DNA of 9,131 bases, from NCBI RefSeq assembly GCF_003334785.1, contig NZ_QOWV01000034.1. One strand, 5' to 3'. The stretch comes from Escherichia coli (GTDB lineage: Bacteria; Pseudomonadota; Gammaproteobacteria; Enterobacterales; Enterobacteriaceae). Shown in pieces: positions 1-7,194 of the stretch (positions are counted from its first letter, which is position 1; the number at the start of each line of letters is the position of its first letter). The notes under the pieces are model-generated. The model was not told where the DNA came from. It saw only the letters and a program-made list of their open reading frames with translations, and did no database searches. The position numbers were made by a program, and so were the translations under genes.

Positions 1-75
1 ATTCAGCGCAGTAGCTATCGCACGAATGCTCATTTTGGCTGACAAACCAGCTCGTATCTCCTCGCGCTCAGACAG

Positions 76-100
76 TGAACCGCCCCGGGAATCCTGGAGA
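76..100. repeat. Left terminal inverted repeat (IRL) of the IS element
   Basis: 25-bp sequence starting TGAAC, matching the reverse complement of 1361-1385 at 23/25 positions. Confidence 0.8.
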
Positions 101-129
101 CTAAACTTCCTGAGAAAGAGGTAAACAGG

Positions 130-456
130 ATGACTAAAAATACTCGTTTTTCCCCCGAAGTCCGTCAACGGGCAGTCCGTATGGTTCTGGAAAGTCAGAG
201 CGAATATGACTCACAATGGGCGACAATTTGTTCCATTGCTCCAAAGATTGGCTGTACGCCGGAGACTCTGCGTGTCTGGGTTCGCCAGCATGAGCGGGAT
301 ACCGGGGGCGGTGATGGTGGGCTCACCAGCGCTGAACGTCAGCGTCTGAAAGAGCTGGAACGTGAAAATCGTGAACTGCGCCGCAGTAACGATATCCTTC
401 GCCAGGCTTCCGCTTATTTTGCGAAGGCGGAGTTCGACCGCCTCTGGAAAAAATGA
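130..456 (+). CDS. IS3-family transposase OrfA (helix-turn-helix DNA-binding subunit with leucine-zipper-like C-terminus)
   Basis: 108-aa ORF. N-terminal HTH-like segment ([13 protein letters not shown]...[14 protein letters not shown]) and C-terminal heptad-like segment ([27 protein letters not shown]), as in IS3-family OrfA. Ends at the A6 slippery tract. Confidence 0.85.
448..456 (+). other. Candidate programmed -1 ribosomal frameshift / translational coupling site (A6 tract, AAAAAATGA) joining orfA and orfB
   Basis: A6 run at 448-453 directly before the overlapping ATGA. IS3-family elements commonly make an OrfAB fusion by -1 frameshifting on A-rich slippery sites. No downstream structure was evaluated. 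Confidence 0.4.
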
Positions 457-1343
457 TGCCACTGCTGGATAAGCTGCGTGAGCAGTACGGGGTCGGACCG
501 CTATGCAGCGAACTGCATATTGCCCCGTCAACGTATTACCACTGTCAGCAACAGCGACATCATCCGGATAAACGCAGTGCCCGTGCGCAGCGCGATGACT
601 GGCTGAAGAAAGAGATACAGCGCGTATACGATGAAAATCACAAGGTATACGGTGTGCGTAAAGTCTGGCGTCAGTTGTTACGGGAAGGTATCAGAGTGGC
701 CAGATGCACTGTGGCACGTCTCATGGCGGTTATGGGACTTGCCGGTGTTCTCCGGGGTAAAAAGGTCCGTACGACCATCAGCCGGAAAGCCGTTGCCGCA
801 GGCGACCGCGTAAACCGTCAGTTCGTGGCAGAACGACCTGACCAGCTGTGGGTGGCTGATTTTACTTACGTCAGCACATGGCAGGGCTTCGTCTATGTGG
901 CGTTTATCATTGATGTGTTTGCCGGATACATCGTGGGGTGGCGGGTCTCATCGTCTATGGAAACGACATTCGTGCTGGATGCGCTGGAGCAGGCGTTGTG
1001 GGCCCGTCGTCCGTCTGGCACCATCCATCACAGCGATAAAGGCTCTCAGTATGTGTCACTGGCCTATACGGAGCGACTAAAAGAAGCCGGATTACTGGCA
1101 TCAACAGGGAGTACAGGCGACTCGTATGACAACGCGATGGCGGAGAGCATCAATGGTCTTTACAAAGCGGAGGTAATACACCGTAAGAGCTGGAAAAACC
1201 GTGCAGAAGTGGAACTGGCCACACTAACGTGGGTGGACTGGTATAACAATCGACGATTGCTGGGAAGGCTGGGCCATACTCCTCCGGCAGAAGCAGAAAA
1301 AGCTTATTATGCTTCCATCGGAAACGATGATCTGGCAGCCTGA
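453..1343 (+). CDS. IS3-family transposase OrfB (DDE catalytic/integrase-core subunit)
   Basis: 296-aa ORF in the -1 frame relative to orfA. Candidate DDE residues in [16 protein letters not shown] and [13 protein letters not shown] (RNase-H-like transposase core). ATG at 453-455 overlaps orfA stop TGA at 454-456. Confidence 0.85.
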
Positions 1344-1360
1344 GTTCACAGATAAAACAC

Positions 1361-1385
1361 TCTCCAGGAAACCCGGGGCGGTTCA
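1361..1385. repeat. Right terminal inverted repeat (IRR) of the IS element
   Basis: Reverse complement TGAACCGCCCCGGGTTTCCTGGAGA pairs with 76-100; located 18 bp after the orfB stop codon (1341-1343). Confidence 0.8.
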
Positions 1386-1428
1386 TACTGTACGAAGAAA
1401 GAAACTACCGACTTCCGCGGAGATCACA

Positions 1429-1437
1429 TGGTAGAAT
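1429..1437 (+). promoter_or_regulatory. Candidate extended -10 promoter element (TGGTAGAAT) upstream of the 1507-2082 membrane protein gene
   Basis: TGnTAGAAT resembles an extended -10 (TG + TATAAT, 5/6 match) about 70 nt upstream of the ATG at 1507. No convincing -35. A GAGG Shine-Dalgarno lies about 6 nt before the ATG. Sequence-only guess. Confidence 0.25.
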
Positions 1438-1506
1438 GCTATGTGATAAAAAATGAGGTTGTGGTTGCCCGGGCCCAGATTGAAGTTCCCATAAGCTGAG
1501 GTTTTT

Positions 1507-2082
1507 ATGACGCAATCAGAGATGCTGAAATTAATCGCCCGACATGGTTATAACGTTGGATTTGGCGCTAAGAAAAACTTTGCCACCTATGATCTGATTT
1601 GTAAGGCATCCGGTTGGATTAGCTTTATTTCTCTTGCTGTCGGTGTGTTCGCCCTTTTTATTCCTGAGCTGGCCACAAACGTCATTTCCGCGATATTAAT
1701 TATATTTGGTGTTGCTACAATGTACATTCAGTTTTATGACTCGGAAAAGCAGAGTTATGAAAGTGCGGGGATTGAGCAGACCAAAATTTTTAATGAACTT
1801 GAAGTCATCTACCGCAACGTAAAAAGCGATGCAAACTTTGACTATCAGCGTACACAACAATCCATCGACGCTATCATGTCCCGGTTTTACGGCACGGTCA
1901 TCAGCAAACAGATCTTCGGAAGTAACTGGTACGCACATTATAAATTTTACTGTGAATTTGAAAAAGCATGGGTTGAAGAAGAGCTGAACCTGACACTGAA
2001 GGACAAAATCCCGCTTTCGCTCTGCTTTCTCGCCGGTCTGGCGATCATTTTTACTATAGCTGTCATCTGGAAAACGCCCTGA
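1507..2082 (+). CDS. Small multi-pass membrane protein of unknown function (two adjacent N-proximal hydrophobic helices plus a C-terminal one; SLATT-like or Abi-like effector topology is a guess)
   Basis: 191-aa ORF with GAGG RBS. Hydrophobic segments WISFISLAVGVFALFIPEL and ISAILIIFGVATMYIQF (about residues 36-76) and IPLSLCFLAGLAIIFTIAVIW (about 168-188), separated by a charged, presumably soluble ~90-aa region. AT-rich codon usage like the neighbouring defence operon. Confidence 0.7.
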   Translation: MTQSEMLKLIARHGYNVGFGAKKNFATYDLICKASGWISFISLAVGVFALFIPELATNVISAILIIFGVATMYIQFYDSEKQSYESAGIEQTKIFNELEVIYRNVKSDANFDYQRTQQSIDAIMSRFYGTVISKQIFGSNWYAHYKFYCEFEKAWVEEELNLTLKDKIPLSLCFLAGLAIIFTIAVIWKTP

Positions 2083-2634: not shown

Positions 2635-3360
2635 TTATGATGTACATAATACCTTAAAATTATCAACTAGCTGAGCATTAACCTCCATCTGACTAATCCC
2701 CCATAATGCGGCTAACTGTTTCTCTGCAATCCCACTATCCCATGGCATTAGTGGGTCATTACGAAACTTAGCAAATGGCCCATCTGTTTCTGTAAGAATG
2801 CGTGATTTGGGTATTTTCAAAACTAAGGCCTTACCCTTTATTGTATCGAGCATAGCAGGCCCCACTGAGAACCAGCATCCTAAATCAATTGCCCTTTCAA
2901 GCTGCTTAGGTGTTCCAGTGAACCAATGCAATATTGCCACCCCATCGATATTTTCAATCTCATCAAGCACCGCTGATGCACTTCCCCGACTATGGATAGT
3001 CATAATCTTGCCACCAGCCCGATTTACACTGTTGAGAATGTGTCGGAACACTTTCAATTGAATATCCCAATGTTCTTTAAATCCCTGTCCACCATCAAGC
3101 CCTATTTCCCCTACATACTTAGTTTCCGAAAGCAATGAATCAAACAGGTCTAACTCATGCGATCTTTGATGCGCGATTTGAGGATGTAGCCCAAGAGCAG
3201 TTCGGATTCGTTGACTTTCTTTAGCCAATAAAGAAGTACCATGCCATGCTTTAGGTGTTGTTGTCACCGACAGAATATAAGTCCCTCGACGTTTACTTTC
3301 TTCAGCCACGAGGTCTGGCCGAGGATATAAGTCTAGATGACAGTGCATATCGATGCTCAT
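2635..3360 (-). CDS. qatD: TatD-family metal-dependent hydrolase/DNase, QatD of a Qat defence system
   Basis: 241-aa ORF beginning MSIDMHCHLDLY (the HxH metal-binding motif that opens TatD-family TIM-barrel hydrolases), with further conserved His/Asp/Glu positions. ATGA start/stop overlap with the upstream QueC-like gene at 3357-3360. Last gene of the operon. Confidence 0.85.
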   Translation of the reverse strand: MSIDMHCHLDLYPRPDLVAEESKRRGTYILSVTTTPKAWHGTSLLAKESQRIRTALGLHPQIAHQRSHELDLFDSLLSETKYVGEIGLDGGQGFKEHWDIQLKVFRHILNSVNRAGGKIMTIHSRGSASAVLDEIENIDGVAILHWFTGTPKQLERAIDLGCWFSVGPAMLDTIKGKALVLKIPKSRILTETDGPFAKFRNDPLMPWDSGIAEKQLAALWGISQMEVNAQLVDNFKVLCTS

Positions 3361-4676
3361 ACTATGTTCTCACTCAGTAAATAGCTTTCAACCTCATCTA
3401 GGCCATCCTTAAATACTTGCTTGAAATTATCAAATTCTGCCGTAGGCAAAGGGCCACTTTTGGCAATCCATGTACCTATTTTCAAAGTCGATTTCTGCGT
3501 GATCGCAATCCTAAGGGCGATCAGGTCGTCCCTGCGATCTATTTCATTCATTACTTTAGCTAAGGACTGGAAAATATATTCAACATCTCTACTAATTCCC
3601 CCTGCATGAAGTGATGCTCGTCGAATGATACACGGTATACATACCCCACATTGCTGCCCCATTCGTTTCCAATGACTGCAGGATACTGTACTTTCCACAA
3701 TTTTAGATAAGAGCTGCTTATTTGAACATTCGGAGATCATTTTTCCTTTTGTCTTAAACTGATATGGATTGATTATTTGACAAGAAATACCGAGCGCATC
3801 AAAGATCTTTTGTATGCTCGTAATAAAATGTGGATGTGTTGTTCGTGTGCTCAGCGAACCTATCCGCCGTGGAGTAAGTGGTGCATTTAATGAGATAAAT
3901 CCATTTTCAGGTACGAACAAATCAATCTTTTCTTGTTGAGATATCTCTTGTACGGCACAAGCACCTACGGCCGCAAGGGCAAGAAAATTGAGGCTACGAG
4001 TTCGCATCGTAATATCAGTCACGCCTTGATAAATGTGTGGGTCAGCATTAATCTCAAAGCGCGAAAATTGGCCACTTAATTTTTCAGCAATCTGATCTTG
4101 ACGAGACTTATCCCCTTTATAAGCATGACTAACCAAAAGTGGAGCGCGCCCTGCAGCCAGAAGATCTATTGCACCAATAGCTGAATCCAGACCTCCTGAA
4201 AATAAGCTGACACAGTCAAGCCCTTTTAGCTTAATCAGACGATGCCTTGAATGCTGGCTATAAGGCTCTGGCGGTGCATAACCATCGTCACAAAATTCGA
4301 AATCCCAGATGTCTCCACTAAGAAAATGCAAAGCACTCTCAAGTTCTTTCTTTAGACTAATCCATCTGGATGGTTCATGAAGGGGGAGTCGTAACGACAA
4401 TTGGCGGGTCCAACCATCCTCGGAACTTTCACGCTGAACGAAAGTATCTGCTGCAGTTACTGCTAATGCAACACTCAGAAAATCCATGACCTTAGCTGGA
4501 AGCTGTACTCCCAAACGTCTGATCCGATCAATCGCAGGATTCCCGATAACAGATATATCTCCGCGCCTCTGACCACTTAATCCATATAGCTGAACAGGTA
4601 ACACTTTCTCACTTGCTGGCGGCAAATGGTGATGTTTATGATGGAAAACTAATTGTGTCACTGGTATGCCTCCCAT
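3357..4676 (-). CDS. qatC: QueC-like PP-loop ATPase (7-cyano-7-deazaguanine synthase family) with an N-terminal extension, QatC
   Basis: 439-aa ORF. PP-loop motif SGGLDS at residues 160-165 (nt 4182-4199, minus strand). C-terminal cysteine cluster CSHWKRMGQQCGVCIPC resembling the QueC zinc site. Operon context with KAP NTPase and TatD. Confidence 0.8.
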   Translation of the reverse strand: MGGIPVTQLVFHHKHHHLPPASEKVLPVQLYGLSGQRRGDISVIGNPAIDRIRRLGVQLPAKVMDFLSVALAVTAADTFVQRESSEDGWTRQLSLRLPLHEPSRWISLKKELESALHFLSGDIWDFEFCDDGYAPPEPYSQHSRHRLIKLKGLDCVSLFSGGLDSAIGAIDLLAAGRAPLLVSHAYKGDKSRQDQIAEKLSGQFSRFEINADPHIYQGVTDITMRTRSLNFLALAAVGACAVQEISQQEKIDLFVPENGFISLNAPLTPRRIGSLSTRTTHPHFITSIQKIFDALGISCQIINPYQFKTKGKMISECSNKQLLSKIVESTVSCSHWKRMGQQCGVCIPCIIRRASLHAGGISRDVEYIFQSLAKVMNEIDRRDDLIALRIAITQKSTLKIGTWIAKSGPLPTAEFDNFKQVFKDGLDEVESYLLSENIV

Positions 4677-5410
4677 TCTTGCCAGGCCTCAATAATGGCC
4701 TGACGTTCAATTTTTACCATTTGGTTTCGTGTGAACGATCTTATGTTACCGGCAAGTTTTGGTGCCATATGTTTATCAACAACAACTTTAATCAATTCCC
4801 GGAGTTCAATTTCTGCATGAATTGCCTTTGAAGGTGTATCTGCTTTGTTCCATGCCCTATTAGAATCCATTACCATCTGAAGGAAAATACTTTCCGCTAG
4901 ATAACCAATCATTGTGTCAACAATCAAACCATCAGTTATTTTTTGAGGATCGAAAATTTCTACGCCATCAAGAGCCTCCACTAAAGCATGGTTCATGGCC
5001 GCACAGATCTTTTCTGAGTCACCATCCTGTGATGTTAAAGCTTGAGCAATAGTTGATATTGCTATTTCGCATGGAAGGCCTGCCAAACTGCCCAAATCGA
5101 TGCTTGGTTCTCCGGGAGCCGAAGGCATTCCCACTAAAGCCCCAAATAATTCGGCCCCAGCTTGCGTGACACTCCCTAATCGCCGAGCAGCGTTACTGCT
5201 CCCTCCGGAGGCTTTTCGCGCGTAGTGCCCTATGGCTTTTCTGAAATCTGCTCGATTTCCATTTGATACCGCATTTCCCAACGATTCTCGAAATGGCGCA
5301 AACCTCCTTTCTTGCGGCGAGGGTAACGGTTGCTGTGGCTGATCATCAGCCCATGGTGGAACCAGCGGAGAGCCACCTCCTGGACCTTTACTTGATTGTG
5401 ATGTTCCCAT
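4658..5410 (-). CDS. qatB: QatB, protein of unknown function (Gly/Pro/Ser-rich N-terminal ~100 aa followed by a helical domain)
   Basis: 250-aa ORF between the KAP NTPase and QueC-like genes. Start ATG shares one nucleotide with the qatA stop (TAATG at 5408-5412) and the 3' end overlaps the qatC start by 19 nt. Assignment is by operon position; no motif recognised. Confidence 0.6.
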   Translation of the reverse strand: MGTSQSSKGPGGGSPLVPPWADDQPQQPLPSPQERRFAPFRESLGNAVSNGNRADFRKAIGHYARKASGGSSNAARRLGSVTQAGAELFGALVGMPSAPGEPSIDLGSLAGLPCEIAISTIAQALTSQDGDSEKICAAMNHALVEALDGVEIFDPQKITDGLIVDTMIGYLAESIFLQMVMDSNRAWNKADTPSKAIHAEIELRELIKVVVDKHMAPKLAGNIRSFTRNQMVKIERQAIIEAWQEWEAYQ

Positions 5411-7194
5411 TAAGCGTCCTTATTCCATTGTTCATCTTTTAATGCTGCAGTCATCCACGCTGGTCGTTTCATCCCCAACTGTAATTCCTGTAGATAACGA
5501 ATTAATATGCTGGCTGCATCTGTTGAGTAGCGGGCCAACAGACATGCGCCGGAAAAGCCTCTGGGCTTACGATCCCAATCTGATACCTGCCGTAACTGGT
5601 TAATTAAACCTTCCATTACAGGTATTTGCTCCTCACGAGGAAGTGCTTTCAAAAGGTTTTCTGCTGTAGGAGAACTAGTGTTTTTCAATTCAATTAGTGC
5701 ATTTAGTACTTCCCGTCCAGATGGCGATAAACCAACCACATATGCACCTATTGGCATAGTTTCTCGGGACAGATATATGGCGGCCCTTAAGTCAATCCCA
5801 CCAAGACGAGGTTCAAGTTGGGCCCATTGACTGATGAAAGATTTAGTCGTTGGACTATCAGTCCATGTCTTTGGTGCATCAGTAGGTATTTGACCGCCAT
5901 TATCGTCAAGCTGTTTAAGTATCTGGGGAACACCTTGTTCAATATCCACGAGATGATATAAATCAGCGGTGCCATCCACTCCAACACAGCGTTCAAAAAT
6001 TACTAGCTTAGTAATAATTGCTTCATCCAAAGGCATTGCTCGTCGCTTCGCAATTTGAGATCGCATTTTCACAACATTCAACAAGCGTTTAACGATCCTG
6101 GGATTACCATGAATAATTGGAGAGTTGGCTAAAATGGGAGCAATACGGTCAGCACGCGCAAACGCCAGCGCGAGGTTGCTATCATCCGCTTCACCAGTCA
6201 TTTTTAAGGCCTCCTGACGTGAGATTGGTTCATCTTTCCAGGATTGCTGTAACGCCTTCTCTAAGCCCTCACGGAGCATAGTTATTTTTTCGCCTTCTAA
6301 GCCATGTTCAATGGCATAAAGCATGAACAGATACGAACGGATCTCACGGACCCCAGCCTTAGGCACCCGAATAGGAACCTGGATTAGCTTATCCAGATAA
6401 TCTATTTGATGGCGCTGTGATGCCCCTTTGAAGTAATCAGCCACAGAAGAGCGAATCATGTCCTCATCTGCTGCAATAATAAAGGCTGTATTAGTCAAGA
6501 AAAGGAATAGCCTGATAGCTTCAAGTGTATGGATAGCATTGGCAGGGAGACAGCGGTCTAGGTTATCTATTACCACAATGAGTGGCTTTCCAAGTTCTTC
6601 TAGAATTTCCCCATATTCCTTACGAAAGGCATCAATCTGCTGAGGGGGGCTTTTTTTTGTTTGTGGTTTAATCAAACCACAAGCAGTTTCTTTACCTTCT
6701 TTAGCTATATTGCCTAAAGCCTCATACTCTTCCTGGCTCTGGATGCCATCGGTGATATTTCTTAATGCACCAATCCCCCTAGAAAGCAAACCGCCAGTAG
6801 GTAATCCTGCCATTAAAGCTGTACCCTCAGCTAGTAATCCCATAGCTCTAAAACCATCAACTCGACTAAGGAGTCTCTTAGTTTTTGATATAAGGGTAGA
6901 ATTACCTTCAGCAGCTTTTGTCAATTCTGTAGCGATGACTTCAAGAAGTGCGGCACGGGCGTCGTCGTACCCCTGATAGAGCCAAGAGTCAAAATTGATA
7001 ACAATCCAATCTTTGTCGTCTTGCTCAAGTTTTTGCTCTATCAGTTTTAACAGAGAGGATTTACCTGCCCCCCAGTTTCCAAAAATTCCGATAGATACTG
7101 GTAACATATCTTTCGTGGTAAGTACATCCACGGCTAACTGAGATACTTCACCAAAATTTAGGTAGTCTTCTGATGACTCTTTGTCTGACCACAT
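5410..7194 (-). CDS. qatA: KAP-family P-loop NTPase, QatA
   Basis: 594-aa ORF. Walker A GNWGAGKSS at residues 39-47 (nt 7057-7080). Walker B-like PLIVVIDNLDRC, the hhhhDxLDR signature typical of KAP NTPases. AAGGAT RBS 6 nt upstream of ATG. First gene of the four-gene operon. Confidence 0.8.
   Translation of the reverse strand: MWSDKESSEDYLNFGEVSQLAVDVLTTKDMLPVSIGIFGNWGAGKSSLLKLIEQKLEQDDKDWIVINFDSWLYQGYDDARAALLEVIATELTKAAEGNSTLISKTKRLLSRVDGFRAMGLLAEGTALMAGLPTGGLLSRGIGALRNITDGIQSQEEYEALGNIAKEGKETACGLIKPQTKKSPPQQIDAFRKEYGEILEELGKPLIVVIDNLDRCLPANAIHTLEAIRLFLFLTNTAFIIAADEDMIRSSVADYFKGASQRHQIDYLDKLIQVPIRVPKAGVREIRSYLFMLYAIEHGLEGEKITMLREGLEKALQQSWKDEPISRQEALKMTGEADDSNLALAFARADRIAPILANSPIIHGNPRIVKRLLNVVKMRSQIAKRRAMPLDEAIITKLVIFERCVGVDGTADLYHLVDIEQGVPQILKQLDDNGGQIPTDAPKTWTDSPTTKSFISQWAQLEPRLGGIDLRAAIYLSRETMPIGAYVVGLSPSGREVLNALIELKNTSSPTAENLLKALPREEQIPVMEGLINQLRQVSDWDRKPRGFSGACLLARYSTDAASILIRYLQELQLGMKRPAWMTAALKDEQWNKDA

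Follow-up and report, generated by a model that had tools for sequence, protein, structure and literature searches.

Organization of the locus

The window analysed here is a 9,131-nucleotide stretch of Escherichia coli DNA (assembly GCF_003334785.1, contig NZ_QOWV01000034.1). Coordinates for its features are given in Table 1. A short piece of an IS30 transposase gene occupies the left edge and is followed directly by an IS629 element that appears intact. To the right of the IS629 lie the 3′ end of a CBASS cyclase gene and a set of further genes that includes a complete QatABCD anti-phage system.

Table 1. Features of the window, with positions counted from its first base.
Feature	Position	Strand	Remarks
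IS30 transposase gene fragment, codons 61-85	1-75	-	Nucleotide identity and peptide identity; gene runs on leftwards past the window
ATG for internal Met75 of the IS30 transposase	31-33	-	Assigned from its place in the peptide; not a start codon
32-codon ATG open reading frame	26-124	+	Spans the IS30/IS629 junction and is made by it; no support as a gene
Left junction	75-76		IS30 nt 243, then IS629 IRL: ...CTCAGACAG / TGAACC...; same as the bona fide IS629-in-IS30 site of other strains
IS629/IS1203-type element, IS3 family	76-1385	+	1,310 bp; IRL 76-100, IRR 1361-1385; appears intact
IS629 orfA	130-456	+	Overlaps orfB; programmed -1 frameshift arrangement
IS629 orfB	453-1343	+	NCBIfam transpos_IS3, E = 1.6e-94
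Right junction	1385-1386		IS629 IRR, then CBASS cyclase codon 406: ...GGTTCA / TACTGT...; no target duplication
CBASS oligonucleotide cyclase 3′ remnant	1386-1499	+	Codons 406-442 and stop (37 codons); far end of the deletion
SLATT/2TM effector gene	1507-2082	+	Intact, orphaned
QatABCD system	2635-7194	-	Complete
qatD	2635-3360	-	PADLOC
qatC	3357-4676	-	PADLOC
qatB	4658-5410	-	PADLOC
qatA	5410-7194	-	PADLOC
Hypothetical gene	7326-8447		Length varies between strains
Suggested internal repeat of the hypothetical gene	7414-7465		Possibly variable in copy number
Probable end of another IS	9056-9131		Next to a VasL-domain gene remnant

The organization of the IS629 is that of the IS629/IS1203/IS3411 elements of E. 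coli and Shigella (IS3 family, IS3 group), with which it shares a length of ~1.3 kb, terminal inverted repeats and overlapping orfA and orfB. Both ends are complete to the last base, and the terminal inverted repeats (25 nt, beginning TGAACCGCCCC) are 92% complementary. In strain TW10722, RefSeq names the copy at the same locus an IS3-like element IS629 family transposase, and a frameshift pseudoknot is marked by RefSeq in the same-locus copies. The window element differs from three other IS629/IS1203 copies at 24-27 of 1,310 positions (98% identity). Elements of the IS629 group generate a 3-4 bp target duplication, but none is found here, where CAG precedes the element and TAC follows it.

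The window element is a mosaic of two IS629 variants, unlike the copy at the same junction in WS4437A-1. Approximately 260 nt, from about nt 790 to nt 1050 of the element (window ~865-1125), are of the O157 IS1203 type, and the remainder is of the type seen in WS4437A-1 and SCU-116. This patch carries 20 of the 26 differences between the window element and the same-locus copy. The pattern indicates gene conversion between IS629 copies, which would have occurred after the junction formed, since the patch is present in the window and lacking from WS4437A-1, where the junction is the same. We considered the mosaic as a trace of the deletion pathway discussed below and rejected it, because a patch later than the junction is uninformative on how the junction arose. 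In other strains the same IS629 has itself been interrupted. TW10722 carries a group II intron (ltrA) inside it (L001 4870-7132), and 300709 carries ISCro1 there; the IS30 remnant of 300709 also holds another IS629, in the opposite orientation (L008 4577-5886 and 6582-9282).

The translation of positions 1386-1499 is identical to the C-terminus of a 442-aa CFT073 protein that matches the PADLOC Cyclase model PDLC00796 at E = 1.8e-176, and RefSeq annotates the cyclase remnant of the sibling strains as incomplete, missing the N-terminus. The SLATT/2TM effector gene lies directly downstream of the IS629 in the same orientation and is now orphaned, and the two-gene CBASS system is presumably inactive. 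All four qat genes have strong PADLOC matches. The hypothetical gene beyond them is split or frameshifted in some strains. BLAST alignments of this gene to five strains overlap over the same short interval, which suggests an internal repeat that may vary in copy number, and PADLOC gives the gene only a weak hit, to PD-Lambda-4_B (E = 3.6e-6). The last 76 positions of the window match CFT073 locus L006 6377-6452 at 94.7% in inverted orientation, beside transposase fragments, and their TW10722 counterpart abuts the IS66-family element ISEc23. They probably belong to the end of a further IS, one that truncates the remnant of a VasL-domain (type VI secretion) gene.

Identity of the left-edge reading frame

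An earlier note on this DNA, made from the letters of the window, had reported an open minus-strand frame at the left edge. The reverse complement of positions 1-75 is indeed free of stops and translates, exactly as given there, to LSEREEIRAGLSAKMSIRAIATALN. The minus-strand ATG that the note placed within it is also present, and the plus strand reads CAT at these bases. The caution that a 25-codon frame is weak evidence was well judged, as about 30% of random 25-codon stretches lack a stop.

The 75 nucleotides are a fragment of IS30. They match the IS30 transposase gene with 100% identity over 75 of 75 positions (77 when a 2-nt overlap into the end of the IS629 is counted), and full-length matches are present in 3,504 of 5,426 complete E. 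coli genomes (E = 1e-30). IS30 is a 1,221 bp element of E. coli and the IS30 family, encoding a 383-aa DDE transposase with N-terminal helix-turn-helix (HTH) domains. The match covers nt 243-317 of the element, with window position 75 corresponding to nt 243 and window position 1 to nt 317, and LSEREEIRAGLSAKMSIRAIATALN is identical to residues 61-85 of the intact protein.

The resemblance to an HTH peptide from a transposase N-terminus, remarked on in the note, is real. Pfam HTH_38 matches residues 58-98 of the intact IS30 transposase (E = 1.3e-18), a region that contains residues 61-85, and the break in the window copy removes residues 58-60 of this domain. A second, weaker HTH_38 match (residues 6-41, E = 0.014) lies entirely in the lost portion. 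Nagy and colleagues (2004) reportedly studied the functions of both N-terminal HTH motifs of IS30. The catalytic core (Pfam rve) comprises residues 229-320 and is encoded beyond the window's left edge, while the NCBIfam model transpos_IS30 (NF033563) spans residues 89-364. The supposition that the gene began upstream of the methionine at 31-33 is borne out as well: Met75 is internal, and 60 codons are missing. Leftward extension, which the note had proposed as a check, was carried out in sibling genomes with the same junction and adds 298 codons that end at the native IS30 stop; the early stops that would have spoken against the note's reading do not occur.

State of the IS30 remnant

Compared with intact IS30, the window copy lacks nt 1-242, and with them the left inverted repeat, promoter, 5′ UTR and codons 1-60. 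IS30 has two 26-bp terminal inverted repeats, and neither the window nor the sibling loci have the left one (nt 1-26). What remains at the sibling loci is nt 241-1221, so that the copy extends through its native stop to the right-hand terminus of the element. The sibling frames contain no frameshift, differ from the CFT073 protein at two amino acids, and are open through the DDE core region. The siblings suggest that in this genome, too, the portion of IS30 beyond the left edge is intact.

A simple consensus scan of window positions 1-1600, which covered both strands and also included terminators, found no sigma-70-like promoter. Where the IS30 frame continues into the IS629, no Met codon occurs before a stop is reached. 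By its sequence the remnant is a pseudogene, predicted neither to make transposase nor to transpose as a unit, because the left inverted repeat, promoter, 5′ UTR, start codon and first 60 codons, including the N-terminal HTH, are gone. From the consensus scan, it is probably not expressed. The retained right end of IS30 could still attract other IS30 copies. Automatic annotation already recognizes such remnants: in TW10722, WS4437A-1 and 300709, RefSeq labels the sibling copies as an incomplete IS30 family transposase missing the N-terminus, or as a fragment of a helix-turn-helix domain-containing protein. Positions 1-75 are thus a known kind of object, ordinary mobile-element wreckage.

Junctions and lost DNA

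The insertion point of the IS629 lies between IS30 nt 242 and 243, at the boundary of codons 60 and 61 and inside the HTH_38 domain. The earlier note had the frame cut off by insertion of an IS. The frame does end exactly at the IS629 left inverted repeat, and that part of the claim stands; the event was not a plain insertion, as the far side of the element demonstrates. The remainder of the window contains no further IS30 sequence; the one match among its 9,131 bases is 18 nt long and due to chance.

CFT073 provides a reference for what has been lost. In that strain the order of features is an intact IS30, the rest of an IS3-family element that the IS30 had entered, a transposase fragment, the full-length cyclase gene, SLATT and QatDCBA. 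Window positions 1-77 correspond to 5001-5077 of the CFT073 locus (L006), and the window from 1386 onward corresponds to L006 from 7772 onward. Relative to CFT073, the 2,696 bp at L006 5076-7771 are replaced by the IS629. This segment held IS30 nt 1-242, the IS3-family remnants and cyclase codons 1-405, meaning that the IS30 5′ part has gone together with ~2.45 kb of neighbouring DNA, a total of ~2.7 kb. Leftward from the break, the window lineage is collinear with CFT073 over 1,316 nt, as read from sibling sequence, and beyond the 3′ end of the cyclase gene it is collinear throughout. The difference is most parsimoniously described as a local loss.

Distribution of the junctions among genomes

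The right junction is rare, occurring in 3 of 5,426 complete genomes (TW10722, WS4437A-1 and 300709, all of them human stool isolates). The left junction is found in 23 of the same 5,426, and a search of the plasmid collection gave no full matches to it. These 23 genomes fall into three settings. In the three genomes of the window lineage the junction adjoins the CBASS/Qat island and 2,696 bp are lost to the right of the IS629. Nineteen genomes belong to an O157:H7 group around TW14359 and EC4115, where the junction lies in a P2-like prophage remnant near pgsA and uvrC, CAG is duplicated, and the IS30 5′ part follows directly. The remaining genome is that of the dog isolate CUVET20-416, in which the IS30 sits within an IS600 remnant near galF and the IS629 abuts IS30 nt 191, a 51-bp loss. 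The losses at the right end of the IS629 therefore form a series of 0, 51 and 2,696 bp.

Matches to a junction of the IS629 right end, CAG and IS30 were mostly non-contiguous two-piece alignments, and the matter was settled by direct reading of TW14359. In that O157:H7 strain the left junction belongs to a simple IS629 insertion with a CAG duplication, and this makes the left junction of the window a genuine insertion site produced by the transposase. Two other matches resembled the ancestral right junction and proved to be other IS629 insertions, one in the 5′ end of the cyclase gene and one in qatB.

Origin of the arrangement

It is very probable that an IS30 copy was cut by IS629 at nt 242/243, that the DNA to its right was lost as far as cyclase codon 405, and that the remnant was left as a pseudogene. 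In the proposed sequence of events, IS629 would have inserted at the CAG of a resident IS30 in a CFT073-like ancestor. The right-hand DNA would then have disappeared in one of two ways: through a deletion having the right end of the IS629 as its fixed point, or through recombination between this copy and another IS629 lying in direct repeat within the cyclase gene. Sequence comparison makes both the insertion and the loss evident; the proposed order and the routes of deletion are the likely reconstruction. The presumed intermediate, with IS629 in IS30 and both halves present next to the CBASS island, was found in no genome of the collection. A clean insertion of IS629 in the cyclase gene at TAC (cyclase...TAC followed by the IS629 left end) occurs in 0 of 5,426 genomes, and the route through recombination of two copies is without direct support because this intermediate is absent. 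The missing target duplication would be explained by loss of the original right flank.

Rump et al. (2011, PMC3271280) found that only 21 of 47 O157 IS629 copies keep the 3-4 bp duplication and that 26 of 47 do not. Calvo et al. (2023, PMC9943667) attribute many gene inactivations and genomic deletions to IS629. IS629-associated deletions and gene inactivations in EHEC O157 are described in these two studies and, reportedly, by Kusumoto et al. (2011, PMID 21224843). Given such frequent loss of the duplication and such deletions, the architecture of the window is ordinary. The window resembles the EHEC O157 deletions in having a single IS629 between two unrelated truncated genes, no duplication, and loss of the intervening DNA. 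IEE-type excision takes out the IS itself and seems a poor fit here, where the IS629 is retained with both ends exact.

The alternatives differ first in what they take the left-edge frame to be. A chance feature of non-coding DNA would agree with the frequency of stop-free stretches given above, and we give this reading no credence in view of a perfect 75-nt match to a known gene that recurs in thousands of genomes. The frame could also be the start of an HTH regulator gene unrelated to the IS, beginning at the in-frame ATG at 31-33, after which the sequence is HTH-like. Such a gene can be set aside with near certainty, because identity to IS30 is 100% on both sides of the ATG and the codon is that of Met75 within HTH_38. 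The 25 nt upstream of the ATG (GATACGAGCTGGTTTGTCAGCCAAA) contain no GGAGG-like ribosome-binding site, no promoter-like site was found in positions 1-1600, and initiation at that codon would yield a product missing the beginning of the HTH domain. With the frame assigned to IS30, one account of the junction is a simple IS629 insertion that splits the element and leaves its 5′ half just beyond the IS. O157:H7 TW14359 has precisely this arrangement. For the window it is extremely improbable, since the right flank is the 3′ end of the cyclase gene, no other IS30 sequence lies within the window, and the flanks read CAG and TAC.

The order of the two junctions could also be reversed. IS629 would then have entered the CBASS cyclase gene first, after which its left end would have attacked a nearby IS30 site intramolecularly, deleting the DNA between and creating the IS30 junction as a secondary product. 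A seemingly preferred IS629 target in IS30, hit at the same nucleotide at three loci, would suit this order, as would the exact ends of the IS629 and the absence of a target duplication. We nevertheless consider it unlikely. The copy-out-paste-in mechanism of the IS3 family, as reviewed in 10.1101/2023.06.07.543989, does not by itself explain deletions at the donor and would not be expected to delete donor DNA in this way, and the clean insertion at TAC that the scheme starts from is the one absent from the genomes searched. The right end of the IS629 also varies between CUVET20-416 and the window while the IS30 junction stays constant, which fits an IS30 junction that is primary. Insertion into IS30 followed by rightward loss accordingly remains our preferred reading.

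A possible IS629 hot spot in IS30

Three unrelated chromosomal loci have an IS629-type element at the same IS30 nucleotide (242/243), all in one orientation. The shared junction is at 75/76 in the window and at L007 6060/6061, L010 6025/6026 and L009 4060/4061. The three loci carry three different IS629 variants. That of WS4437A-1 has 2 differences from the SCU-116 type, that of CUVET20-416 has 4 differences from the O157 IS1203 type, and that of TW14359 has 61-69 differences from all others, the variants differing by 4-5%. At two of the three loci, related genomes have the resident IS30 without IS629. For the island locus this is the case in CFT073. For the prophage locus, the junction between prophage and IS30 is present in 264 genomes and the IS629 junction in only 19, with PA11 as an example of IS30 without IS629.

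Different variants at one junction, combined with IS629-free resident copies in relatives, point to independent hits. These comparisons raise the possibility of a nucleotide-precise, orientation-specific hot spot for the IS629 group between nt 242 and 243 of IS30, in the HTH-coding region, with insertions made in place and independently; we judge the chances of this to be even. Another possibility is that an IS30 allele already carrying IS629 spread between IS30 copies by gene conversion, and the mosaic structure of the window element shows that conversion between IS629 copies happens. No shared target motif was found in the flanks of eight IS629 copies, and IS629 has been reported to lack a sequence-specific target (PMC3271280).

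Significance

For annotation, the value of these results is that the left edge of the window is IS30 debris and not a regulator gene. The IS629 beside it is the sign of a deletion to which the cyclase of an adjacent CBASS anti-phage system was also lost. A hot spot, if real, would run against the published view of IS629 as an element without a sequence-specific target, and one IS family would be repeatedly knocking out another at a fixed point. It would then be a small, testable addition to what is understood of target choice in the IS3 family.
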